A stretch of 62,085 nucleotides of DNA, counting the filler, from Platydemus manokwari (Eukaryota), in assembly GCA_037951405.1 (NCBI GenBank). It is 5 parts of 5 records of this genome, joined end to end, with 100 filler letters (N's around TTAATTAATTAA, not from the genome) between each part and the next. Parts side by side here need not be neighbours in the genome. Positions count along the whole stretch, not along the records: positions 41,241 to 51,225 come from JBBMOY011166657.1; 4 more parts are not named here. One strand, 5' to 3'. The position numbers and the translations under genes were made by a program. Positions 12,303 through 52,707 of this stretch are shown here, in pieces. Under the pieces are notes generated by a model. It saw only the letters and a program-made list of their open reading frames with translations. It searched no databases and was not told the origin of the DNA. Within the stretch, counting starts at the first letter, position 1; each line of letters starts with the position of its first letter.

Positions 12303-13869
12303 ATAAAAAATTGTAAAATTTAATTTTAGAAGTTCGTTTCTTAACTTTAGCTCATATATTTAATTCCAATAATATCAACTCAAAAAATAAAATTCCTCTA
12401 GCCATGAAATTAGTCTGGATAATTTGCAGCACGTAAATTGGAACCCTTTTCTTCAATTTGCAATTGAAAATCAAAATCTTCATCAGAAGTATTTTGATTG
12501 GATGAACTCAGAAAGATGAATTTTCAAAATTCTCCTCAACATATTTCAGAAGAATTCTTTGCAGAAACATTCGAAACTGATCAAAATCATAATGAAGAGT
12601 ACAAGAGTATCAAGTAACAATTGGTATTGCAATGTTCTTAATAAAAAATTTATTCTTTTCGCCATCTTTGTCGTATGTTTTATGTTAAGTATGACGAGGC
12701 ACATCCTAGACTACGATACCAATTTCCGGATTCTCAAGTGGAATTCAAATTTCAACTAGTAATCGTTAAAGATTTTATCAAGCTTTTAACAATAGACTAT
12801 TTAGATAAAAGCAAAATCTAAAAAGTTTAAAAAATAAATCCACAGCCAACCATTCAGATTTTTAGAAATAACAACGAGGTGCTCCATCTAAGGTTATTTG
12901 GTTTCTTTACAATATACAGAAGATGAAAGACGCGGGAAGAAAGGATACAAGATATATCTTAATTCCACCTAAACGCCATTTAACATAAAATTTAATTATT
13001 TATGATAGGATATGATGTGAAAGAAACAACACTATCCAAATCATATTAACAAAGAAATAGAGTGGAACCCAAAAATGCTCTTAGTTCCACAAAATATTTC
13101 CACAATCATTATGATAGAATCCTATTATCATCAAATTATTCCCTCAATCAAAATCACCTAATTGACAGAGTCCATACAATTATACGGATTAAAAATTCAA
13201 AATATCTAAAGCATGGCAAGTATGCTTCATCAAAAATCCATCAATCACAAGCGATCACACAAGGGAAAGAATCATATTCGTAAATATTATCATGGCCAAT
13301 GAAAAGGTTCGAAATACTTACCAATCACATATTGGGGTGATAAATTATCACAGCTATATATATGTTCTAATTTCAAAGTAATTCCACGAACAAAAAATAT
13401 GGAGTTATGAAATAGAAATAGATGGATTTCATAAGCTTTTAGTGATGGAATGTATTGGCGAATATCGAACCAACAATTATTGCAGGTGGTTTACGGGCTT
13501 AAAGATATATAAGGAATTAATTGGTAACAAAGCCAATATTTAAAGGGAAAACAGAAAAAAAACAGTAGAAAACAGCGATAAATGTCAGATCATTTAATGA
13601 ATTAAAAATGGATATTTTAACGTGTGGAGCAAAACACATGAATTATGCATTGATCGTACAATTTAATTATACATTAAAAGTTTATTAAAAATATAACTAT
13701 AATTATAATTACAAATATTATGTTAGCCATTATTTATATTTTACTATTATTTGATATTAGCATATATGAATTGAATTTCATATTAGGAATGCCATTATCA
13801 TTACAAATAAATCCATAAATCAAACAATAAATTGTGAAATACTATTTATATATTAAAACTGGTTATAAG

Positions 13870-37300: not shown

Positions 37301-40300
37301 TGAAAATGATTATAAAAGATTCATATTTTGGCAAAACAAAGTCACATGACATTACATCAACAGTAGCAACTTAAGTCCTTGAACAAATAAAATTAAATTT
37401 ATGGTAATAAAAATGCAAATAGAGAATTAAAGAAATTAATAGGAAATTATTTAGCAAATGTGCTGCTCAACACAGCATAACCCAATACGTCCAAATTAAC
37501 ATAACTCCAAACGATTTCTACGGACAACGGGGAGCACTTACATCGTCAAATATATTTGTAACATGTGTTTGCTTTTGGATGTCTTAATTTAATTTGCCGT
37601 TTTAATTTTCCGATTATGATTAAGTTGATTTTGTTCACCGGGATTGATAAATCCTCACGTATGTGTTGTTGTGAATTTACGCCCTTTCTATCAAATTGAA
37701 ATCTTCGATTATAATTATAAAAAACAATTCCCTTTATAAAAATAAAAATTTAACCAATCATAATTAAGGCACTATTTATATTTTTTCTAATAAGATTGAT
37801 CAATTAATTAAGTTCATTTTCATTCCGTGCTTTATAAAATAGTAGTGGCTTACAATGATAATAATAACAATAATAATAATAATTGTAATATTAAAATTTT
37901 ACTGATACTTGGTAGTTGCCCCCGTTTCATTAAATACGAATTTGAAACGAATCCAAGGAAATCAACTCAAAAATATTTTTTATTCTAGTATTTAAAACAA
38001 AACTTTTAAAGATATTGTGAGGTTTTGAGTTTTTTTCTAATACGAACATACTTCTTGATTAAATTGATTATTACAAAACCACTTGCTTCGACTCTTTAAG
38101 CTTCACAAATCACTTTATTCAAAATCTTCTATTTTTTCACAGTCCATATGATCGAATCTACAATTTCAAAATTCTCTACATTGATTTCGCTATATTTATT
38201 CCAAACATTTATTCTGGCAAAAAACAGCTAATCTAATAAGACTACTTTAACCCAAAATATCTTGACGAAAATTAATATCACTGCTTAATACATTTGCTCC
38301 AATCCATTCTCTCGATGTAGTAAGTGATTGTTGCAAATCATTCGTTATTTTTCACGGGTGTTTGTTTTCGAAATTCGATCCATTTTATACTTTTATGCTC
38401 TTAACTCTCTTAGGATCAAATCCAATATGTTTTTGTTGCTGTGATATCTGCTTTGATTTCATTAAATATAATCGAAAACCAATGTGAGAATTTCCACCTC
38501 AAAATATATTTTATCACAATATTTAAAGATATTTTTATCATTTAGAAATGTAAAATTAAATATTTTGTCTTTAATTTGATAATTTATATGTTACTTGATA
38601 GGGAATACAATTTATGATAATCACTTCATTGAAATACTGGATAACAATAGTTAAACATAAGTGTATATGATGTTGGGTCTTGAGTCTGAATAACTAAATA
38701 ATTACTGACTCAAAAAATCGAAAGTTGTTAGTTTTATTTCTAATTCTCGCGAATGAGACTCAGAAAATAGCACAAAATTACAGCTAAAACTTGTTTTCCA
38801 ACTACACACATATTATTCAGTACAACTGACAAATTTCGGCTTCCAACTGGCAGTGAGTCTCACAGTTGAGTCTCATATTTGATTAGATCTTTTGTTTTAT
38901 ATGTTTCTACCGGGCTTATTAATTTTTTGTAACCGAGGGATTGGCCAATCTCCATGTGTGTGTTATTATTGTTTTTCATCTACCCCAACTATGATTGGTT
39001 GATGGTAATCTCTATATTATTTTGTAGGCATGCAAATTTTTGAAGTGCTAAAACCAAATTTCAAAGGTGCAAATTCGCTTGTCTTTTGCAAGATTTCGTT
39101 TCACTCAACAATAATATTGGCAGATAAATTAAACATTTCTTATCATCAAACTCAGATACTAACGAGTTTGAATACCTTTTGTTAGTCATTAATTTATCAA
39201 TATCTTCCAAAGGAAAATCAACACAAAAATGTATCTTATGAGAATTTTTAAACAAATTAATTAAAATTTATTTTAATTTATTGACATTATTTTCAATGAT
39301 CATTTAAAAAAATTATTTATCAGAACTTCAAAATCTTCAAATCTTTGATGTACAATTTCATACTGAATTGCAATGTATGTCATCAATCAATCATTGATAT
39401 AAATATTTCATAGAAGCCATTCTTGAATGTCAGAATAGCTCGATTATTATATTCATTGATAATTGATATCAATGAGTTAGGTGTGATTAACCGTGATGAG
39501 AATAATTAAAAGAATCCCTTTCAAGGCTACCTAATTACGTTGATGGGTATCATTTTGGAACCAGATTAGAATTTGAAACAGATTTCTTTCTTGGTGTAAA
39601 TATCAGATTCTACTCTAATGGTTTGGAATTATATTACTTTTAAATCAACAAGACAAACCTCAAAGTATAATCACACAAAATGATAAGGAATAAATAAATA
39701 ATAAATAGTAAGATGATAGAGAATATATAAATGTATATAAGGAGAATATGAAGAAGTTGTTCAGAGAAATTTCGATAAGAAATTTCGAAAATAATTAATG
39801 AATTCGATAACGAGAAGTGTGACGGAGATCAAAGATTTTAAAGAAATTTTGTGTAAGAATTCCGAATCCAAGTTATGTGAAATGAACATTTTCAAGGGAA
39901 ATAAAACTTCTATTAAAAAAATATCAATGATGGTGAGCTAGATAATTCGTTTTCAAATCATTTTCAATCGATAAAGTCACAAATTCAACACAACCTCTAT
40001 AGTTTGGATCTCAAGTATAAAATAGTGACGGACTGAAATAATTCCGATATATATCTAGGACTTGTGATGGAGATGGTTATAAGAAAGAGCATCTCATTAG
40101 CAATAGTTCCACATAAATGGAAAAAACCATTTCTTCTGCAGCAACAAATGACCAGAACGAGAAATAGCTTATGAGACCCGATTTGAAAAGATAAACAAAT
40201 CAAAAATCGCTTTCATTTTATATCGATATTTTCTTGTATTTAATCACAGATAGAATTCCACATAAGACAAAAATGCATTTCTCCAATATTATCTATTTCT

Positions 40301-41654
40301 CTCTCTCTCTCTCATTAAAAGAAACTCATTAATATAAAAGGACGACTAGACAGACATATTGAACATAAATTAGAGTAATGTAACAATTAAAAAACACATT
40401 ATTGCGCCATTTTTTTCTTTTGTTGGAAGGAGAGAATGTTGAATGACTGATGTTCGAATAGAGAAAAATTGCTTTCATTATTAAGGATATTTATTTTGAG
40501 CTTTCGACTTTTTTTTAGCCCATTTAAATAATTTTACAAATTTTCACCGGCATTACAGCTATTGCAGTGAAAGAAAAGACCCGAAAAAAAATCTTGCCTT
40601 CAATTTTTGTTGATTTGATTTGGATTAAAGTTATAAGCATTGCTCAACGATGTGAATCGAAAAGAGAAATTATGATATCAAATATTCTTTATTTCCTTCG
40701 AAAGATCTTTATTGTAACTTGATATTGGTCATTGATACCATTATAAGTGTACTGTCATCGATTTTTCTCAATGAAGTTGGTGAATTTATTATTGATTACA
40801 TCACATGAATGTGTGATATAATCGAACTATATTTTGGATATAAAAACCAAAAGATCGCTATAGTTACTATTAGTTAATTTTCGTAATAATTTTATGAATT
40901 GATTTTATAATTAAAAAAAAACAGAAGAGATGGAGAATGCTGCACCGGAAAATATTATTATTCGTAATAAATCCATACGTAATCAGCTTTTTTGTATTAT
41001 AATCTGATATTTGCTTTATGCGATAGACATTTAATATCAAAAGAAATCTTTTATTCATTCACAGGGATCTGAATTTGATGAAACCTTGTATTTGCATAGA
41101 AATTTGATCAATATTAAAAATATAATAATTTATTGTTATTNNNNNNNNNNNNNNNNNNNNNNNNNNNNNNNNNNNNNNNNNNNNTTAATTAATTAANNNN
41201 NNNNNNNNNNNNNNNNNNNNNNNNNNNNNNNNNNNNNNNNTTATTTTTATAATATTTTTATTGTATTACTTTATTTTTCATTATTGTCTTGGTCACTATT
41301 GTTTATTTTCTCATTTTCTATTATGTATTTTTTAATTTTACATTTATTACTTTAAAATTGACTTTTATTATTGTGCTTATCACAATGTTAAATTTTTATT
41401 GTTAATAATATTATTTCATTGTCTATCATTGCATTGTTTATGCGTGTCTTATTATTTAATGTTTTCTTGTTCCATTTCTTTATATTCTCATTATCGTTCT
41501 TTTTATTATTTCCTTAGTATTAAGACTGTAAGCCGCTCTTTTTTATAAAGCACGCATTAAAAGCGAATTGAAAAGACACGACACCAAATTATGTATTTAA
41601 ATGTGTTAAATTTGAATTAAATATTTGGGACTACTCTAGATTAACTGCTCGACT

Positions 41655-41993
41655 CTACTTATATCTATCAATATCCAAATTAATTCCAGTGCGCAGAGTA
41701 AAAATGAGACTTCCGTTTAAAATACTATTACATGTTAGATTACATTCAGTCAACAAATGTCTAGGTCTTTGAACTTTACTGAAAATACTAGTTAAGAGTT
41801 TCCTTCCGGCTATTATCTTAACATATTTATATACGGTAACGTTAGCTCTGATTCTCTTCAATTGTTATAGTTGCAAAGTGCTACCGATAATACTATAGAC
41901 ATATTTCATCGTCCATATTTCCGGACTGTGGCATCTACTTTCCCATAATTCCTTCATAAATTGCTTTGATGTCATTGCCTGGGTGAACGCCAT
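41655..41993 (-). pseudogene. Unknown ORF remnant (MAFTQAMTSKQFMKELWESRCH...*QLKRIRANV...)
   Basis: ATG at 41993 is in frame with the 68-aa ORF across a single TAA (41865-41867). It lies about 220 nt downstream of the PBS-like motif at 42201-42219. Confidence 0.35.
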
Positions 41994-42200
41994 TTTCTTC
42001 CATTATTTTCTTAACTACCTGGGCTCCTTAGATATCGCGAATTTCCATTATTTCTTCCATAAAAATAGACAACGCATTTAACTTCTATTTTAAGTCATAC
42101 CCGACTGTTGGATTAGTAGATGATATTGATTCTTAGGTTGAGTAATTTTTATTGTCCCAACGTATGCGTGTTTTAATAGTAAATTTTATATTTATGATAT

Positions 42201-42219
42201 ATCGACACCTGACTCCAAA
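42201..42219 (-). promoter_or_regulatory. PBS-like motif TTTGGAGTCAGGTGTCGAT
   Basis: Begins TGG a few nt after ...TGCA and resembles the tRNA-Leu PBS (TGGTGTCAGRAGTGGGAT) used by many gypsy elements. The core recurs at 45377-45387 and 13918-13930. Confidence 0.35.
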
Positions 42220-43579
42220 GGTGCAGTGCATAACTACGACAATAAGGAATAATAAATTATAATAATAACAAATTTAATATATAAAATTTATTAATGGTAT
42301 ATAACATATACACTTGATTAACATAATGAGATGCCGATTAAAGTAACAAATTGAATAACAAATAACCAGGCACTAGATGGGGTTTGTTGGCGCTTAATTA
42401 TTAAATTTTACTGGCTCTATGCAGATAGAGTGTAAATAAATATTCTGGTCTCTTATGGGTAAACCTGTAAGAATCCTTCTTTAAGATTTTTTGGAGGGTA
42501 GGCCTACTTGGCACCGTACCCCCTTTGTGATGAATTTATTTGTTTAGTGAAAGTAATTTCTAGTTGAACTGGGTTCAAACTAGAATTTTTATGTTATTGC
42601 TACTAATTGATTATTCGGTTTAAGTTATCTTTACTCTTTTCCCAAATGATGATGGATCAAATTTTACCAGAACAACAAGGTTTGTTGTTAGGTTTCAATG
42701 GTTAATTATTAATATTTTGGTTAGAATTAAATAGACAGTTACAATAATAACGATAAGAATTACCAAGAAATCAATCTTATGATGTCTTAACAATACAAAT
42801 GAGGTGCAAAGTATTATGACTCAAATTTATGATTATTAAAGATGAAAATATATCAAATTTACAATATTTTTAGAGGTGAAATAAAGAACTCTTACGTTTC
42901 CAGATAGAATAACTGAATTAAGGCAAAAATCGTATACCACAAAGATTATTCGAATTTCTGTTATAGATTTCTCTTGTCCTTTCTTGTGAACTCTTCTAGT
43001 TTATAACTCCTTTTTAATGTTAATTTGTCCGCGGGGTTCTTGCGGAATTTTGCTAATAAATGAGCACTACAAGTGAATAAATTAACTCTTAATTCCGTAC
43101 GAGTAAACTGATAACCGAGAGAAAAATGCAAATGAATTGACTAGAATAAATTAGCTCGTAAGTCCGCAAGAGTGAACTCATTTGCGTTGATAAAGAATTA
43201 TCTTGTAATAAATTGACTCGTTATTAATTCATCTGCGTCCTGTGATTTTTCTTTAGCCTTTTTATATTAATCTTATTTCTTTTCTCTTTTATTTTTAGTT
43301 TTTATTCTTACTATCTTTTGTTCTTACTATCAATTCTTCTTTTACTATTTTTAGACTTGTTTCTATCTTTTCATTTATTTGCAGCTGTTCTTTTATTTAT
43401 TAGGATTTAAGTATTTATTATTAGTTATTTTAATTCCTTTGTTTAGTTTTAGAAAATTGAAAATTTTGGATGGTTTTTGACTAATTTATGTTTTTTTTGA
43501 ACTAATTAATTTTATTGTTATTATTACAATATTGATTAATTGATTAATTTATATTGTTTCAATATTCCTTTTGTTGTTT

Positions 43580-44680
43580 TTTAATTAATTATTTTAATTG
43601 TATAATATTGTTTTCCCAATACGACTATAATTTTTCTGTAAGAAAGCTTGACAATCTTTTGGCTTATTTCTTCCGAATCGACTGCTCAACACAGTTCATA
43701 TTCCTCAAGGGTAGTTTTGTTAGACTTATAATGTCTAATTTCCCCCTGGATCAGGACTTTTGTTCAATCGAAATTTTTGCGCGATAGTCTCTCACACTTA
43801 TCCATATGGGGTAATTTTTATTATTATCATCCAATGCCAGTTTAACGCCTTGATATAAAATAAAGAATTGCTCCTCATATCTATTGATATCGTTGGGTTT
43901 GTGAATGAAGGACATGTTATTTTCTGGCTCACTGAAAGGTATCTTAATTGGGCTATCGGTGACGTATAGATTGGGTATTATAAATTCAACTGGATCGGGC
44001 TGATCGGGTTCAATGAATTCCAACATTAATGTATATGGAATATTTTTTGCTCGAATATTAATTTTTTCATACTGGGTCTGATGTTTTGGGTATCTTTGGA
44101 GTAAAAAATAGATGATTGCCGATGAAAGGCTTCTAAATCAATTTTTTCAAAATGGAATTTAACGCTGATCTCTGTCTGTGCGTTGTGAATTATGATCGAT
44201 GTGGGTACGAAAGGTAAATTCGTGATAACACTCTTGATGTTAAAATTTCCTTGTTCTTGTGAGTGAAGTATCACTATGGCTCTTAACTGTGATGCTGATT
44301 TGAGGTAATTTTGAAGTTGGTTGACCGAATCAAAATGTTTTCTGTCTATTCCGAAGGGTGCTTTTCTTACTTCTGATTGAATGTTTTTATAACATTTTCT
44401 TGGGAAATATTGTATGATGGTGGTAGTGCCTTCCATATCTTTTATAGGGTAATTAATAAATGAGAAAAATAACAAGTACTTATCGACAGTAATTGATTGA
44501 TAGCTTTTGTCACAATAAAATGAATTTTAAAGGGTTGGTACCCGCTTTTATATGTTTTAAGTTCTATGATCCTATTGGTCAGTATTTTATGGGCTTTATT
44601 CTTATTGGTTAAAGATTTTTTCAATGATTTTCTTATTGGTTCACTTATTTTTTTCCAATGTTTTTTTTGAGAAATATTTA
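43580..44680 (-). pseudogene. Accessory ORF of unknown function, probably one gene of about 350 codons broken by frameshifts (track ORFs 44442-44624, 44026-44475, 43751-44026)
   Basis: The three ORFs overlap or abut. The 44026 junction can be bridged by a 1-nt indel in an A run. Protein-like sequence continues in another frame to about 43580. Confidence 0.5.
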
Positions 44681-44721
44681 TTATTTACAAAATTTTTATT
44701 TACAAAAATAATTTATTCTCA

Positions 44722-45097
44722 TCAAACAACAATCTCATTATTTATTCGTATTTTATTTATACAGTAATTGATTTTCCATTCAAAACAAAAATCACTATAG
44801 ACATTCCATATTATTCTATTTTCATAATGATTTCCATTAAATACTATTTCAGAACTTTTTAACTGGTATCTACACTTAACTATATATTCAATTTCTAGCC
44901 TATATTTACAATTAGTTGTTACTAAAAAAATTCCAATTTTAATCAAACATTTATCTATATACAGTCCTATTTTATACAGTAATTGACATGCATTAATCTC
45001 CCATGAGTGTGGATTGTCTTTACAATATTTTTTGTACACTTGGTGACCTATAGTCATTACAATCATTAGTAGTGCTAGATATTAATGCTCCTATCAT
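44722..45097 (-). pseudogene. Small secreted Cys-rich accessory protein with a frameshift in the signal peptide
   Basis: Removing 1 nt near 45079 gives MIGALILALLMIVMTIG-HQVYKKYCKDN..., a signal-peptide-like N-terminus followed by a domain with 7 Cys. Confidence 0.5.
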
Positions 45098-45116
45098 TAC
45101 AATGTTCAATGTTATT

Positions 45117-45320
45117 TAATTTTGGGGATTATATCTGTTTAAAAGGGTCAACTTAGTACTATTTGTTGTTTTAATAGTTTTTGTTGTTTTAGTAATGGTT
45201 CTAATCGTTGTTTTTCTTGTCACGGAAGGTTCTATAACTACCTGTTCTCTATGGATAATGATTTTGGGATTAATACTATAATAATAATAATACCAAAAAT
45301 GTATATTTATTGGTTTTCAT
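45117..45320 (-). pseudogene. Small hydrophobic-leader, Thr-rich (mucin-like) accessory ORF, frameshifted
   Basis: MKTNKYTFLVLLLL then, in a shifted frame, IHREQVVIEPSVTRKTTIRTITKTTKTIKTTNSTKLTLLNRYNPQN*. Confidence 0.4.
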
Positions 45321-45601
45321 ATGTTAACATTTTGTTGGATTTACCGACTGTAGAGCGCATCAATCCTTGTACTGATCTGACTCCAAAAATTAAAACAAAG
45401 TGGTTGATCACTAAGTTATATTTTCACAAATTTACATGATTTAAAAGTTGATTACACAAGGGCCTAACCCCTAATAAAGTTCTGTCAACAAAATACGGAC
45501 CAAGTACGTGCACCAAATTGAATTACCAGCCGAGGACTACTCCTGGCCTATACTACACCACCAGCGTGCGTAAAGTTACGGACGCTCAATACAATCACTC
45601 T

Positions 45602-47346
45602 TCAAACAATACCGATATTCGGGTAGCACTGAGCACGAATATCTCGATACAATTTATAATACTGATATTCGGGATTCACTATACACGAATATTTTATTAC
45701 CAGATACTTGCTACTTACAATATTCGGGACTGCTTCTTCCACGAATATTACTCCCACTAAAATAAAAAAATGTAACCTGTTGTTTTGTCCCTTGAAAAAT
45801 TCAGTTAAATATTCTTTCGCCCTGATATCTGTCTGTTCCTGTGGCTTCGTCTCTTCGTCTTCCGGAGTGAAGTATCTCTCTTCTTCTACCTCTGCGCGAG
45901 TATGCCACTCATAAATGATCTTGGACTCTGGATTGTCCAAATAAAGGCCTTTGGTATATTTCCATAGTTCTTCTTCATCCAGAATCTCTACAGAGTCTGG
46001 AGTGTCCCATAACATTTCTTCTTTGATGTCAATTTCCTCCAATTTAATCCTTTTACTAGTGGAAGGTTGACATTCTTCAGTTTCACTACTTGTGGATGGT
46101 CTGGGTTCTTCGTGGGTTCTCTGTGATAAGCTTTGAATCATCCCAGCATCCTTTTTCTTTGTTGGTTGCTCCCTTTTTTTCGATTGTTCTGCTTCTCTAT
46201 TTCCTTGGACGGGATTCTCACCTTGGTTTCTTCCTCGTCCTTTCTTTCCTCTCGGGTTTCCTTGGGCTCGAATCCCTAATGATCCGTCCACCTGGCTTCT
46301 ACGGCGAGGTAGATTTTCTTTATTATTTCCACTATGTAGCTTTTCTCATACTTCATAAATCTTCTCGGAAACTCGTAATTGATGTATTGGCCTGCTAATC
46401 TTTGGAGAGGGAATTTCTCATTACTCCTTTTGACGCCATCTTCTCCAAATACTGGCGTATTGGATAGTTCCCTTACTCCACATAGGTTTCCATTGGTGAC
46501 TCTCAGAGCTATTAGTCCTTCTAATACTCTGTGGCCGATAACTATTGTTCCTCTCAATAGTTTATTGACTTCCTCTTTAGCCAATAGTTCATCCCTTCTT
46601 CCTTGAACTGTTTCTTCGATTAGGCCATGTTGAGGCGTTCGGTAATCCAAAATCAGGGCTCTGGGGGTAATTACGTTGGAATACATCAATTCTCCTTGAT
46701 AATCTAAAATGTTAACAGCTATCGGAACTAGCCCACTGGCGAATTCCGGTTGTGCTAATGCCACATGGACAAATCGCACTCTTCTTTTAATATCCTTCTC
46801 CGTCATTCTCATTCGCAAAAAGAATCTGTGATTCTCAATTTGCAGGCAATCTTGGTTCAAATCCCCAAATTTTTCTTTAGATTGACGGGGTGCCTTTCCT
46901 CAATTGGGCTGGTTTTTATCAAATATGGTTAGAGATCACATTCCTTTTTTCTCGTGGACATTTCTAATAACTATCTTTTTGAGGTCCTCACTGAATCGTT
47001 CAATCTTCACCGTTGCGTAGGGTATTACTATGGTTTTCCATTCCATCTCCGGATTGGCAACTTCAATGACTGTGAGGACGTTATCAATTTCGATCTCCTC
47101 CTGATCCTCTATCAGCCCTTTTATTGGCAATTCGCCTTCCTGCGGTTCTGCTCTTAAGAACATTCTTCTATTTTCCACCGCTTTTTCCTTGAGGCAATTG
47201 GGTATATCTTGTACTATTGTAATATTGATCTGCCTCCAATGATTTACGTTCATAAAAGCTTCTATTCTGTCGTAGAAGATCCCGGCTTTTACCGTCTTCT
47301 TCAGCGACATTCCTTTTTTCCTTGACAAGGTAGGTTTGTGGCTCAT
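45602..47346 (-). pseudogene. Accessory ORF of about 580 codons: unknown N-terminal domain, ISG20/REXO4-like DEDDh exonuclease fold (catalytic residues absent), charged low-complexity tail
   Basis: ATG 47346 (MSHKPTL) is in frame through TGA 46936-46938, TGA 46900-46902 and TAG 46276-46278, then shifts frame at the A7 run (46174-46180) into the 229-aa ORF. Exonuclease-like segment: AVNILDYQGELMY..ITP..ILDYRTPQHGL..EEVNKLLRGTIVIGH..IYLAVEARW. Confidence 0.7.
45749..45759 (-). promoter_or_regulatory. Candidate polypurine tract (TAGTGGGAGTA) preceded by a T run
   Basis: TTTTTTTATTTTAGTGGGAGTAA-TATTCG resembles gypsy PPT/3'-LTR junctions. The canonical TG LTR start is absent. Confidence 0.3.
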
Positions 47347-47444
47347 TCTAAAATATAAACAATCATTAATACTAGTTAATACTTGTTTAGCAAAAACATT
47401 TAAACGATTGACTTTATACAGTAAATACACTATGTACTGTACTT

Positions 47445-48409
47445 TTAACACCGGGTATCCTGGGTTCTGCTGTTTTTGTTTAAAGTTATTGGTTGCTGAC
47501 GGTAGCTGATTATCACTCTTGATATTAACATCACTATCACTATCAGGATTACAATGATTATCATTGCAAATCCTATCATCATTAAATATTCCACGGATCT
47601 TAAAGATGCTTTGTCTTGTTTTAATTCGTTTCTTCTTTCGGGTCCGGTACCCACTCTCTTTAAATGAGTACCTGGAAGCCGAAAAACCGACTCCTTAGTT
47701 GTTTTCTTCCTCATTCTCTTCCAATTCCTTTGAGCAATCATGGCTTTCATACATCTCCTGAGTGACTGCCAGTCTCTGGTTGTCGTAGGTTTTATTGTCG
47801 TAGTCGTAGGTAATGGTGGTGGCATTTTCTGAATAGGTTTGAAATTAAATCCTGGTGCTATTATTTCTACTTCCTCGTATTGCTCGATCCAAAATTTAGC
47901 TGACTCTCTATTCCACCGATCATACCTTATATAAGCTTTTATGGGTCTCCTTTCTCCCAGTGTCATATCATATCTCCTATTTTACTCATCCAACGTAAGC
48001 GCAATATTCTCCATTTGAATATGTACTGAGTTATTTCTCTCTGGGTTCCAAATCCAGATTACGTTTTCTCTTGACACATGTATCTTTACTGGTGCGCGTT
48101 TGCACCTTTTCTGCACTCTGTATTTCTGTCTTGTTTTCCGCCTACGATCACTTTCACTTGAAACTACTGCTTCAAACCAGTAAACTCGTGACGATCTTAA
48201 ATTATTATATGAAACCTTATTCCTATATTTTCCAAGATATATTTCGGCTCTATTTCTTCCTCTTAATAATAAGGCCATTGACACCAGCGGATCACTGTCG
48301 CAATCGCAATGCGCGGTGATTCTTTGTGCTTCTATTCGGTCATTTTTGGGTTCTCTACATCCTTTTTCACTTCCGTAGTTAGTATCAATTCCAATATACA
48401 CAATGGCAT
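47445..48409 (-). pseudogene. Type I membrane protein (env-position ORF): signal peptide, Cys-containing FN3-like ectodomain, Pro/Thr stalk, TM helix, short tail
   Basis: The 145-aa and 173-aa ORFs are in frame across a single TAA (47982-47984). The leader MPLCILELILTTEVK sits in the integrase frame and joins by a -1 shift at GAAAAAG (48362-48368). Also VSYNNLRSSRVYWFEAVV (FN3-like), PPPLPTTTTIKPTTT, and TM LMMIGFAMIIIVILIVIVMLI. Confidence 0.65.
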
Positions 48410-49230
48410 CCAAAACCATTTGTGTAACTTCACTCCTTTTCCGGAAATTACTATTGCTACTGTTCTTGTCCTGGAACGTAGCGCATGTTGGCTTGGTTCT
48501 ACTTCTGTTACTTGTTTACATCTATTTGCATGGACTATCAATGGTCCAGCCGGTCCTTTTCTCTTTAATTGTAAATTAGTAGGCGTCACTTTCTCCACAG
48601 TGTACGGGCTTTTAAATGTTCCCTGCAATTTTGAAGAGAGTCCTTTTACCGGTTGAGGGGTATCTACTAATACCCGATCCACTACCTTGAACTGGTGAGG
48701 CTTCGCCTTTTTATCGTAAGCTTCCTTATAGCTCTCCTGACTATATTTGATTTGTAATCCGGCTCTCTTCCAAGCGGTTTGCATCCTCTCCTGCATTTCC
48801 GTCTTTTAATATTTTTCATCCATATACTGAGATGAAGGCTGAACATACTCCAAGTCTATGTGCATGTTATTATCCCTTAGATACATTAGATAAAACGGTG
48901 TCTCATTCGTAGTACTGTGCACCGTATTCCTATATGCATATAGGCACGATCCTATGTGCATGTCCCAATCTCTCTGATTTGTGCTCGTATAAGAGGCTAA
49001 CATATTTCTCAAAGTGTTATTGAATCTTTCTACCAGGCCATCTGTTTGAGTTCTATATGACGATGTATTCAACTTCATTACGTGGAATAATTTACAGATC
49101 TCCGCAATTATATTGCTCAGGAAATCCTTTCCTCTATCTGTCAGTATTTTCCTCGGTGCTCCATACCGGAACACTATTTCTTCCACGAATATCTGGGCAA
49201 TCGTTGCTGCCTTATGGTTTGGCATTGCAT
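48332..49230 (-). pseudogene. Ty3/gypsy integrase (core plus C-terminal GPY/F-SH3-like region), 5'-truncated, one in-frame stop
   Basis: RYGAPRKILTDRGKDF, SSYRTQTDGLVERFNNTL, AYRNTVHSTTNETPFYLMY and FKVVDRVLV..KLQGTFKSPYTV..IVHANRCK. The 139-aa and 154-aa ORFs are in frame across TAA 48806-48808. The zinc finger and first catalytic Asp are missing. Confidence 0.92.
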
Positions 49231-49231
49231 T

Positions 49232-49560
49232 GACAGTATTCGTATGATTCTTATAGCATTTTCAGTCAGGCTCACATGTTCAAGTATTGTGAACATCCGA
49301 TGTGAACGTTATCGATATTTTTCTTACTGTGTTCTTCTATAATGGCTCGAAGTAAAAAGTTGCTTTCGATACACCCGTCATTTGGACCTGGAATATTCTG
49401 GAGTGAGTGTATTAAGTTGTTTTCAACAACCCAATTCTTTAGTTGTTTGCACAGAATAGTTGTGAAAATTTTATAGCTGCAGTCTAACAGAACAATATGA
49501 CACCGGGAGCTTACTTTATGATAGTGGCCCTCTTTCATGGGTTTCGGTATCATCCATGTT
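49232..49560 (-). mobile_element. Non-LTR (NeSL/R2-like) reverse transcriptase fragment
   Basis: MIPK..SRCHIVLLDCSYKIFTTIL..LQ..DGCIESNFLLRAIIEE..NVHIG corresponds to LINE RT subdomains 1-3. Confidence 0.75.
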
Positions 49561-50351
49561 TAGCAAAATATTTGAATATTGATTTTCTTAAGTCCCTTAA
49601 TTTAATTTATTTTTCAATGCAATGATTTTTTGAATTCCCCAATTATTTTATTGATGTTGAAACGATTCTTCGCCATTTTTGAAACCTAAAATTTTGAAAA
49701 TTTTGCTTATAGTTATTTATGAAATTTTTTATATGAGATTTCAAATTAAAATAGCTAACATTCGTCTTTATGATCAATATCACATCTTACTTTTTTTTTG
49801 TTTTTTCACCTGTGTCGTGGAAATACTAAGGGTCATGCAATTATTTTTTAATTGTTACAAATACCTAAAGTATATTTGACAATGATATCCGTATTTATTG
49901 CGTATCTTGGTAAAATAGACAAGAGTTTCTGATCTGGTATTGCAGTAGAAGTGCCGGGACGAAATCCTTAATTATTTTTAACAGTTGCTAAGTTATTACT
50001 GCTGCATATGTATATTGATATATATCTGGATGTTTGTATTTGGTAAAAATCAGTGTCCTGATATACCAAAAGGTTGCTTTTCTAAAATTCTTTAATATTT
50101 AATACATTCGATTTAACTCGATCAGCTGGTAATGACTTAAAAGGGGCATGTTTAATTATTTTTTATCATCTTCGATAAGAAGTTATTCGATTATTTAAAT
50201 ATTATTTTACTAAATACTTTACTAGAAATGGGTCAGTAGAAATTAATCATAGAGTTATTTTATATAATTATATTATTTAATCAAATCAAATTCGAAATTT
50301 AGATCATTAACATTGTTTATAATATTGATTTTATATCATATTTCATATTTC

Positions 50352-50822
50352 ATGACTGAAAAACATCCACAAAAAATCAAGAAAGGTCAAGTTGATGAGT
50401 TGCGAGAAGTATTTTGCTTATTTGATAAAGACGGTGACGGTCAAATTACATTTACTGAATTGCGACATGCGTTACGAAGTTTCGAACACAACATGACTGA
50501 AGATCAAGTACAAGATTTAATGGTGACATTAGATCGAAACCGTAATGGTGTAATCGATTATGAAGAATTCGTTGATCTCATGAAACCCAGAAGTGGTGAT
50601 AAAGTCGTGATGGAATCTGATCTTAATGAAATGTATAAATTTTTTGACAAAGACAATAGTGGAGGTATTACGATACAGGATTTGCGATTAGTTCTAAAAA
50701 AGCTACACGTTAAATTATCTGATAATGAAATAATGGACATGATGAAAGAAGCTGACATTAATTGTGATGGACAGATTACTTTTGATGAATTTAAATACAT
50801 GATGATGAAGGAGAAACCTTAG
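50352..50822 (+). CDS. Calmodulin-like four-EF-hand protein, intronless, 156 aa
   Basis: EF loops DKDGDGQITFTE, DRNRNGVIDYEE, DKDNSGGITIQD and DINCDGQITFDE. First ATG at 50352; AATAAA near 50895. Too divergent to be canonical calmodulin. Confidence 0.92.
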   Translation: MTEKHPQKIKKGQVDELREVFCLFDKDGDGQITFTELRHALRSFEHNMTEDQVQDLMVTLDRNRNGVIDYEEFVDLMKPRSGDKVVMESDLNEMYKFFDKDNSGGITIQDLRLVLKKLHVKLSDNEIMDMMKEADINCDGQITFDEFKYMMMKEKP

Positions 50823-52707
50823 AAAAATATGAATATCTTGCATCCACTCTCATTTTGAAAATTTCAGAACACACTAACAATTATATTTTTTAAAAATAAA
50901 GAGAAGTGCCTTAAGAACTTTTTTTAATGATAATGTTATGAATTTAAGGCATTAAATATACGTCTTGTCCAAACTTTGAATGAATAATAAATAAGGTTTA
51001 TCAAGTGAAATTGCAAGATTACTATAATACATTCTATTTGTCTTTAGTCTCTTACCACTGTAAGATTTCGTGAGAAATGTTTTTATAAACGATTATTGAG
51101 AATAAGATTAAATTATATTACCATGTCTTTGGCTTGAATTAAGAAATAGAATCCTTTGACCTACTTTCCTAATAATGAATTTTCGCTTATGAGGCATTTT
51201 CATGACTTAATTTTATATATAAATGNNNNNNNNNNNNNNNNNNNNNNNNNNNNNNNNNNNNNNNNNNNNTTAATTAATTAANNNNNNNNNNNNNNNNNNN
51301 NNNNNNNNNNNNNNNNNNNNNNNNNAATCCCATTGTTTTTGTGAAACAATAACTCTATGATCGAAAAATTGGATTCGTTTTTGCCAAATATGAAATCAAA
51401 TCGTGATGAAATGTTGGATAAAATCAACAAAAATACTAACACGAAATTATGTTCATGTAATTAAATGTAAATTTATCCATTAAATTTCTCATTCATTCCA
51501 CAAATCAATCTGTTGGCGCCATGCCATTTCATCAATAATGCATATAATGAAGTTCCTATTAATAGATAAAAATCAAGTTTTTCTTCAACGTTTCCAGTGA
51601 AACTTACTGAATCTATTCTGTTTTTAGTCGATGAATAATTTACACCGTCAGCACTTGATGTTTCCAATGTTGCTGTTGAATGTAACTGGTTTTGATAAAG
51701 CTGTTTTTCATTTATCGATAAATATATGTAAGCATAAATTATCATTTCTTTCCATTTAACGAAAGAGAAACAACGGGAAATACGTTTTATTAAATTGATG
51801 ATTTGATGGGATAGGTCAGTGGTCTTCACACTGTTTGTGTTGCGATCCACTTTACGAGTCCAAATTTTTTCACGATCTTTATTTTGTCTTAATATAAGTC
51901 AGTGTCGAAAATGAAATCCCCCTCTTTTGAAATACACTGGGATAGAATATTGATCACATTAATTGATCATTTAATATTATTATTACGGATATCATTACTC
52001 AAATAAAAAAACGAAAACACAATTCAAAGTCTTAGTGGCCATTTCTGAACGCATCAAACACACATGGACATTGTTTTAAATTATTATTATAAATTTCCTA
52101 ACCGGTTATGTTTGGGAATAATTTCGTGTTACTTTATGGTTGGAATTTGAAATTGTTTCAGTCTTATCTGTTCCATTGAATCATTGATAACGGAATAATA
52201 ATAATAATATCATCTGATGTATCGGAATCTATCATGTTTCCATTAATTAATCGTGAGTGTTACTTGCACGATGATAATAGATATATCTACAGGTCATCTA
52301 ACTGATATGGCACCTAATATATTAAATTTGAGAGTTAATTGGGTTTACATTTAATCACTTAATGAAGTATTGTTGAAGGCATCACCAAACACCATTGATA
52401 ATGAATTCATTTTAATAGATTATCTTTTTATCATATTCATCTGTATTCAGTGGAATTTTCATGACATCACAAGACTTTGACTAGTAGTATATACTTCTCA
52501 TGTCTTTATTAAAGTGTTCGTTATGAAAAGATTTNNNNNNNNNNNNNNNNNNNNNNNNNNNNNNNNNNNNNNNNNNNNNNNNNNNNNNNNNNNNNNNNNN
52601 NNNNNNNNNNNNNNNNNNNNNNNNNNNNNNNNNNNNNNNNNNNNNNNNNNNNNNNNNNNNNNNNCAAATTCATGTTTAAAAAGTGAAAAATCAAAATAAT
52701 AAATTAC

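Follow-up and report, generated by a model that had tools for sequence, protein, structure and literature searches.

Among the described gypsy-like elements, close counterparts of the locus presented here include Juno and Vesta of bdelloid rotifers, in which the third open reading frame (ORF3) encodes a DEDDy exonuclease, a GDSL esterase or a small membrane protein (Rodriguez, Kenefick and Arkhipova 2017, PMC5408684; all statements on papers cited by PMC number refer to the accessible part of their text). Our locus lies in a window, by which we mean the whole stretch of 62,085 nucleotides (nt; filler included) that was analysed, from Platydemus manokwari (GenBank assembly GCA_037951405.1). Its gene array is located on one gap-free contig (positions 41241-51225). 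Within this array, element A (49.26-45.27 kb) is the 3′ end of a dead Ty3/gypsy element with an integrase, a membrane protein, an exonuclease gene and a likely long terminal repeat (LTR). For the array as a whole, the best explanation, in which our confidence is somewhat better than even, is such a dead gypsy 3′ end with a membrane protein and an exonuclease, followed by a second relative, which is referred to as element B.

The likeness to Juno and Vesta consists in a gypsy-like element with a 3′-5′ exonuclease or a small transmembrane ORF3 after pol. However, the rotifer nuclease is RNase D-like and of the DEDDy type, whereas the family represented in the window is of the DEDDh type, nearest to ISG20L2 and ISG20, and has an extra N-terminal domain. 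In addition, a membrane protein and a nuclease occur together in the window lineage, while Juno and Vesta have one or the other, and the accessible text describes neither a fibronectin type III (FN3) protein nor a Pol fusion for them (PMC5408684). The same paper notes Maelstrom and EXD1 as proteins that bind without cutting, and the sole exonuclease cited in the accessible part of PMC6338049 is the rotifer one. Errantiviruses and other env-carrying Ty3/gypsy elements resemble the window element in having a signal, an ectodomain and a membrane helix in the envelope (env) position after the integrase, but their Env is a fusion protein of the F type or of the gB type, as in herpes simplex virus (HSV), whereas the window protein is small, predicted to be FN3-like and without a fusogen match. 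In the main text of a pan-metazoan errantivirus survey, the terms 'fibronectin', 'fused', 'in-frame' and 'nuclease' have 0 occurrences (PMC13524379).

Burro elements of planarians have a giant polyprotein with Env between Gag and protease, an internal region of up to 25 kb, an env-like region that is read in the polyprotein's frame, and RING, MATH/TRAF and ankyrin cargo (Arkhipova and Yushenova, PMC6431247). Burro-type cargo is shared by relatives of the window element, specifically RING and TRAF-MATH in contig L015 and ankyrin in the Pol protein P0151, as compared by description. Nevertheless, the Env of Burro resembles fusion glycoproteins and is encoded between gag and pol, while the membrane protein of the window clade follows the integrase in 7 of 10 relatives; the accessible text on Burro lists no exonuclease or FN3 (PMC6431247). 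Lastly, MDG1-group elements are Env-less gypsy elements with a non-Env membrane protein for cell-to-cell passage, sORF2. This is a short fusogen resembling fusion-associated small transmembrane (FAST) proteins, whereas the window-type protein has an ectodomain of 170-270 residues (PMC11952523).

Element A, its Pol clade and its membrane protein

Element A and the fragment that borders it comprise the following features, where RT stands for reverse transcriptase and LINE for long interspersed nuclear element.

49272-49559, minus strand: LINE-type RT fragment at the point of 5′ truncation of element A, to which it does not belong
48335-49261, minus strand: integrase, core and C-terminal domain, 5′-truncated, with one in-frame stop at 48806-48808
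48380-48415, minus strand: hydrophobic, signal-like segment read in frame with the integrase, 36-47 residues past the conserved VHANRC motif, mean hydropathy 2.1
47445-48419, minus strand: type I membrane protein ORF with a Pro/Thr stalk, a short tail and one stop at 47982-47984
45602-47346, minus strand: exonuclease-family ORF, about 580 codons long and interrupted by several stops and a frame change
about 46821-46279, minus strand: ISG20/REXO4-like (DEDDh) domain without catalytic residues, between an N-terminal domain and a charged tail
45275-45758, minus strand: purine tract (45758-45751) together with an LTR-like repeat of high depth that contains three hairpin units of 28-29 nt (45748, 45692, 45642)

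The window integrase gave an rve match (E 0.0013) and contains a GPY-like motif. Compared with Pol proteins, it reached up to 60% identity (E 7e-93); ten of these proteins matched at 50-60% identity with 258-329 bits, the next-best score being 208 bits. The nearest Pol relatives have the domain order protease, RT, RNase H, integrase (PR-RT-RH-IN), and this order together with a GPY/F-type C-terminal module identifies the integrase as that of a Ty3/gypsy element. In a tree of 63 of the 66 hits the window sequence and its ten Pol relatives formed an 11-row integrase clade with an SH-aLRT support of 100, and several rows neighbouring this clade carry chromodomains. The Pol relatives match the window only from 49243 downward, and the 5′ part of the integrase is replaced in element A by the LINE-RT-like fragment. 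This fragment gave a weak RVT_1 match (E 0.053), and we take it to be of the LINE type from a motif. RT is absent from the element A copy. An earlier, sequence-only reading of this DNA had named an integrase, a membrane-protein ORF and an exonuclease-fold ORF of about 580 codons on one strand of a dead copy. All three are present on the minus strand, the integrase and exonuclease matches being far beyond chance by their E-values, and the view that the copy is dead is supported.

The closest Pol relative, P0127 (contig L020), is filed at NCBI as a protein of a Turicibacter metagenome-assembled genome (MAG). Its contig is a gypsy element, and P0127/L020 is likely a eukaryotic contamination of that MAG. 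Scans of IMG/VR with the integrase and with queries A3 and A4 gave no match.

A long in-frame extension past the integrase was found in nine of the ten clade relatives. Eight have 338-455 residues in frame after the integrase, and a membrane helix is reached within the protein in 7 of the 10. P0127 has 208 residues after the integrase and then a stop, past which the sequence of L020 reaches a hydrophobic helix, and P0134 ends 145 residues past the integrase. The last 22 residues of P0129 are identical (22/22) to the first 22 of the membrane ORF of contig L014, which precedes an exonuclease ORF. Outside the clade, the extension measured 19-171 residues and was without a helix, where the search motif was found. 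Furthermore, a signal-like segment starts 39-61 residues past the VHANRC motif in seven of the eight relatives examined, and at 113 in the eighth. The extension of P0129 also spans two protease-like domains; such extra retropepsin-like domains were seen twice before RT in P0133 and were noted for L010 as well, and P0131 has a second membrane segment ahead of the protease.

The membrane ORF of element A comprises 324 codons starting with an ATG at 48419, and its membrane helix is located at about 47579-47523 (hydropathy 3.5). It has no signal peptide of its own, and the integrase frame contains a signal-like segment placed as in the fused relatives. We therefore read the membrane protein as the broken C-terminal part of Pol, not as a separate captured ORF, which we consider probable. 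Conceivably, it could instead be an ORF3 in its own right, started or spliced independently, with a native frame difference: the ORF is out of the integrase frame and has the ATG at 48419, and separate ORF3s are usual in errantiviruses and rotifer elements (PMC5408684). This is unlikely in view of the lacking signal peptide, the position of the integrase-frame segment and the many other breaks in the element A copy.

With a profile of nine ectodomain rows, we obtained 19 PDB sequence matches at E up to 10, all of which were FN3-domain proteins by name (Tie2, fibronectin, tenascin, Dscam, integrin beta-4, titin and sevenless). An AlphaFold 2 (AF2) model of the membrane protein contained a pair of beta-sandwich modules, each with about seven strands, as well as a disordered stalk and helices, and its top Foldseek match was fibronectin FN4-7 (E 3.4e-5). 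In VIA, fibronectin likewise ranked first (Z 11.8, rmsd 4.0, 158 aligned; background near 5-7). As judged from the model, the ectodomain of element A probably consists of two FN3-like domains. Several observations weigh against this assignment. The PDB profile matches are individually weak (E 0.0067 at best) and the model is middling (pLDDT 61, pTM 0.35). Two bacterial phospholipase-type beta-sandwich pairs tie with fibronectin in VIA (Z 11.0 and 10.8), and the ectodomain is not significant on the profile of the relatives, with 3 of 500 shuffles scoring as high. Moreover, ectodomains vary within the clade, those of L010 and L014 being Cys-rich and that of P0136 different, and FN3 is not universal. 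Pfam fn3 gave no match to the membrane protein, the ESM Atlas gave no usable match for the first ectodomain part, and when stand-alone relatives of the ectodomain were sought with a profile, just 2 proteins came up, both of them from loci that the profile already contained.

As to its function, the internal hydrophobic segment may act as a signal and thread the C terminus of Pol into the endoplasmic reticulum. The surface protein would then be cut from Pol and become a type I surface protein, the FN3-like domains of which may bind the host cell surface and aid particle or cell-to-cell transfer without a classical fusogen. For transfer without a fusogen, the model is the way in which MDG1-group elements spread independently of Env (PMC11952523). 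Judged from sequence, we give such an adhesion role an even chance. Alternatively, the protein might not serve spread and might anchor Pol or capsid assembly at membranes, or act as a surface decoy or superinfection block. A Pol fusion gives low, Pol-level expression, unlike a spliced env; no F-type or HSV gB-type fusogen was among the listed fold or sequence matches of the ectodomain (about 170 amino acids, aa); and ectodomains are exchangeable within the clade. Nevertheless, this alternative appears rather unlikely to us, as the signal-like segment, multi-domain ectodomain, stalk and C-terminal helix have the layout of a type I surface protein in the env position, and a plain anchor would need no two or three FN3-like domains.

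The exonuclease family and its gene context

The exonuclease-family profile matched the element A ORF at 47307-46153 (E 5e-61). Within it, 46899-46279 matches human ISG20L2 (E 1.2e-8) and ISG20 (1.4e-5), and ISG20L2 and ISG20 were also the top Foldseek matches (1.6e-10) of an AF2 model of the nuclease domain (pLDDT 89). In its catalytic columns, the element A nuclease has H, A, G, Y and I, and the active DEDDh set is absent. Among 729 candidates from a word-indexed database there were no longer homologues of the domain; a full HMMER search returned 121 proteins at E 0.001 or better. An N-terminal domain common to 48 of these 121 matches defines the exonuclease family, a count that is partly circular since the profile of this domain was built from 47 of the 121. 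A functional name was absent in all 20 family proteins looked up, which are mostly singletons from ENA, Logan, JGI and MetaClust. For the N-terminal domain we obtained no consistent Pfam family, no PDB sequence and no usable ESM Atlas match; by eye, its pattern looks cupin-like.

The family shares the DEDDh fold of the cellular enzymes ISG20, ISG20L2, REXO4 and SDN1. Its motif III is H-x4-D, and not the Tyr version of RNase D-like DEDDy enzymes, with ISG20L2, ISG20 and SDN1 as best matches. In contrast to the cellular enzymes, the element-borne proteins have their own N-terminal domain and form a separate branch, apart in the tree from 44 rows of a cellular type assigned by reading a few sequences (support 99; 110/122 rows). 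Four proteins of 730-800 aa (P0014, P0037, P0049 and P0066), which begin with a signal-like stretch and contain several REXO4-like domains in tandem, many of these being degenerate, branch with the cellular-type rows. All five catalytic residues (D, E, D/E, H, D) are kept in 28 of 46 family rows and lost in 16, the other 2 being truncated. The sequence-only reading had proposed a nuclease mimic, which suits the catalytically degenerate sub-lineage of element A and not the 28 members with a complete set. The element A nuclease groups with degenerate members (13 rows, support 93), although long branches may attract, and because of this grouping the catalytic loss likely predates the decay of the element A copy. 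In seven pairs of family relatives dN/dS was 0.03-0.18 wherever dS was unsaturated, which indicates that the family is under purifying selection.

Produced from its own ORF, the exonuclease may trim small RNAs or replication by-products at their 3′ ends and thereby blunt host silencing, or it may clear nucleic-acid by-products. In the sub-lineage of element A, it would be a catalytically dead nucleic-acid-binding protein that binds without cutting. This counter-silencing role is put forward tentatively, with somewhat less than even confidence. It is also possible, though not probable, that the exonuclease serves the replication of the element by trimming RNA or cDNA 3′ ends or clearing primers, and not anti-silencing. 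Such a role was proposed for the rotifer DEDDy ORF3 (PMC5408684) and would agree with the strong purifying selection. However, the catalytic set is lost in 16 of 46 members, including the element A sub-lineage, and yet long ORFs persist, which fits binding or a decoy better; moreover, ordinary gypsy elements are generally known to replicate without such an enzyme.

A metagenome scan yielded 19 loci, 18 of which are family members. The other, L019, is a bacterial DEDDh neighbour that was dropped as a false neighbour from all counts. Upstream (5′) of the exonuclease, L010 encodes a fusion of a retropepsin-like domain with a membrane protein rich in Cys and Thr, the membrane part of which also occurs in L009 and L014, and L012 has coiled-coil ORFs besides a membrane protein of 504 aa. 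The exonuclease of L015 and L018 is preceded by RING, RING-TRAF-MATH and coiled-coil ORFs. Complex multi-gene cassettes, as envisaged in the sequence-only reading, thus exist in these two relatives but not in the window. The order in L016 is exonuclease, a 1,582-bp LTR (TGTTAGGG..CCCCAACA) with the ends TGTT..AACA, a TGGCGCCCGAACAG primer-binding site and a gag with a zinc knuckle, which is the layout expected of an assembly running through the LTR of an LTR element. The TGGCGCCCGAACAG site is presumably of the tRNA-Lys type.

Contig joints that unite nuclease with membrane-ORF or integrase sequence were found at 46766-47452 (side 70), 46671-47541 (side 36) and 47301-48813 (side 26), among 15 of 116 joints, and they provide modest support for linkage in other copies. 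Together, the data support the view that Ty3/gypsy elements of this lineage carry the membrane and nuclease genes as cargo and did not come to lie beside them by chance. Opposed to this are the following observations: 18 of the 19 exonuclease loci stem from two assemblies alone; RT or integrase was not seen together with the exonuclease on any single contig outside the window, as no plus-strand ORF of at least 110 aa in L001-L018 matched the window integrase; and the link between P0129 and L014 is an overlap between two assemblies.

Two further details of these contigs were recorded. In L015 (1-5150) and L018 (54-2995), the ORFs before the exonuclease are, in order, RING, RING, coiled-coil, RING, RING-TRAF-MATH and two coiled-coil ORFs, an array with a complete TRAF-like gene inside an LTR element that recalls Burro cargo. 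In L015, L016, L017 and L018, a C-run (AAACCCCCCGAGATA followed by TG) occupies the polypurine-tract position before the LTR, an unusual plus-strand primer site.

The probable second element, B, and the remainder of the window

Below 45.3 kb, the array continues with the following features of element B.

44722-45274, minus strand: likely Thr-rich stalk, membrane helix and Cys-containing tail, with a stop and a frame change, ectodomain missing
43622-44436, minus strand: 5′ part of a second exonuclease ORF, with the N-terminal domain and the first half of the nuclease domain, frameshifted
42106-43621, plus strand: 1,516-bp solo-LTR-like insertion that splits the element B exonuclease gene
41655-42105, minus strand: 3′ part of the second exonuclease ORF, decayed, profile positions 266-324

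In element B, the hydrophobic end of the Thr-rich frame adjoins a hydrophobic stretch with which the Cys-rich frame begins (hydropathy 2.4 and 2.6), and together the two are as long as a membrane helix. The two ORFs are likely one membrane protein, and the order of stalk and helix matches that of element A, L010 and L014; a database match to 44722-45274 was not found. The family profile matched the 5′ nuclease part at 44409-44086 (E 6e-4) and 44086-43772 (E 2e-10), and the 3′ part at 42105-41926 (E 6e-8). Against the element A ORF, the element B nuclease pieces scored 29-34, which is background, and two of three scored 77-93 against P0019; specifically, the 5′ part reached 93 with P0019 and 30 with the element A ORF. 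The insertion between the two parts is flanked by a CGAC duplication (42102-42105 and 43622-43625), has the ends TGTTGG and CCAATA, and interrupts the IIVGHDL-type motif of the family at the insertion point. Its size and end type resemble those of the 1,582-bp LTR of L016, but the likeness is faint (score 50 against a shuffle maximum of 43) and no family was assigned. A short repeat at 42460-42560, with a depth of 17,376 at 42498, is nested in this otherwise low-depth insertion. As a candidate 3′ LTR of element B, 42.52-42.25 kb was rejected, as the insertion encloses it and its similarity to the element A repeat scored within the range of shuffles (50, shuffles to 63). A contig joint at 45292-42248 lies in AT-rich runs and was not used.

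The repeat at 45.75-45.27 kb is likely the 3′ LTR of element A; it counts against this that LTR termini of element A were not found. The 5′ end of the element is lost. Depth, summed over contigs from a single public run that may itself underlie the assembly, does not give a copy number; it was 14-24 in the unique flank, 919-2002 in the element A genes, 9406 in the bin 45241-45573, 292-356 in the 5′ coding part of element B and 286 in the remnant. GC drops along the array, from about 0.40 down to 45.45 kb to about 0.28 below. We conclude with good confidence that the array contains two dead, related Ty3/gypsy elements side by side, both of which carry the same pair of cargo genes, and element B is likely the older relative of element A.

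A very unlikely alternative would be one complex element that holds all the genes, the membrane-nuclease module having been duplicated internally and the 45.3-45.7 kb repeat being an inserted short interspersed nuclear element (SINE) or miniature inverted-repeat transposable element (MITE). It could account for all pieces being on the same strand and nearly gap-free, the LTR-like segment has no resolved TG..CA ends, no 3′ LTR of element B was found, and long accessory arrays do precede the exonuclease in L012, L015 and L018. Yet it has to contend with an element B depth of about 1/3 to 1/7 of that of element A, the composition step at 45.4 kb, the purine tract directly 3′ of the element A nuclease ORF, element B nuclease pieces at background against element A (30-34) and better against other family members, and an element B membrane protein without an ectodomain.

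The five or six different accessory genes that the sequence-only reading had placed in one element are not supported; the array reduces to one module of two genes, present twice. The suggestion in that reading that a second, tandem element may lie below 45.4 kb fits the depth, the GC step and the nuclease scores. The Thr-rich and the secreted Cys-rich ORFs were correctly placed, but their abutting hydrophobic stretches make them likely one protein and not separate ORFs, and the idea of secreted factors is unsupported; the Cys-rich piece reads as the tail of the membrane protein. The unknown ORF of about 350 codons turned out to match the exonuclease-family profile, and the 1.5 kb called non-coding is the insertion with its CGAC duplication. 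A coding piece is indeed present where an ORF remnant had been seen; it is the 3′ half of the second exonuclease homologue and not another gene.

The window as a whole is AT-rich eukaryotic DNA (GC mostly 0.23-0.32) with host genes such as those for a methyltransferase, UQCC2 and a calmodulin-like protein. The calmodulin-like ORF (50268-50822), in a single frame with four EF-hands and at unique depth, adjoins the truncated element A. A short high-copy repeat, SINE- or MITE-like, occurs at both borders of the region (41541-41602 and 51152-51193), with a similar piece at 37818-37882. Diverged direct repeats at 18269-20247 (252 nt, 85%; 109 nt, 83%), with inverted partners near 4.7-4.9 kb, are probably another repeat family. 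A weak exonuclease-family match at 13193-13525 (profile E 0.035; tblastn 5e-4) was judged doubtful and is possibly due to chance. No tRNA or Rfam matches were found.

Meaning for the gypsy elements

A lineage in which a Pol-fused surface protein, probably of the FN3 type, accompanies an ISG20-type nuclease appears to be undescribed. This agrees with the sequence-only reading: FN3 or ISG20/DEDDh cargo in gypsy elements was not found in the literature, although a family of this kind may be contained in Repbase, in subscription journals or in supplements. In its widest form, the proposal would be a widespread undescribed lineage in which the fusion Env is replaced by a host-type FN3 adhesion protein cut from Pol, with a captured ISG20-type nuclease directed against small-RNA defence and exchangeable RING and TRAF-MATH immune-signalling cargo; we regard this as speculative and doubtful.

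The routes by which gypsy elements are known to exit cells involve captured viral fusogens (F, gB) or short FAST-like proteins. A Pol-fused FN3 surface protein, if true, would offer them another way out, taken from adhesion or receptor proteins of the host. The ISG20-type nuclease is a further independent capture of a 3′ exonuclease at the ORF3 position, beside the rotifer DEDDy type. The window itself is a decayed, nested example, and its value is the lineage that it revealed, in which natural active and natural dead versions make the role of the nuclease in retrotransposons testable by comparing intact proteins.

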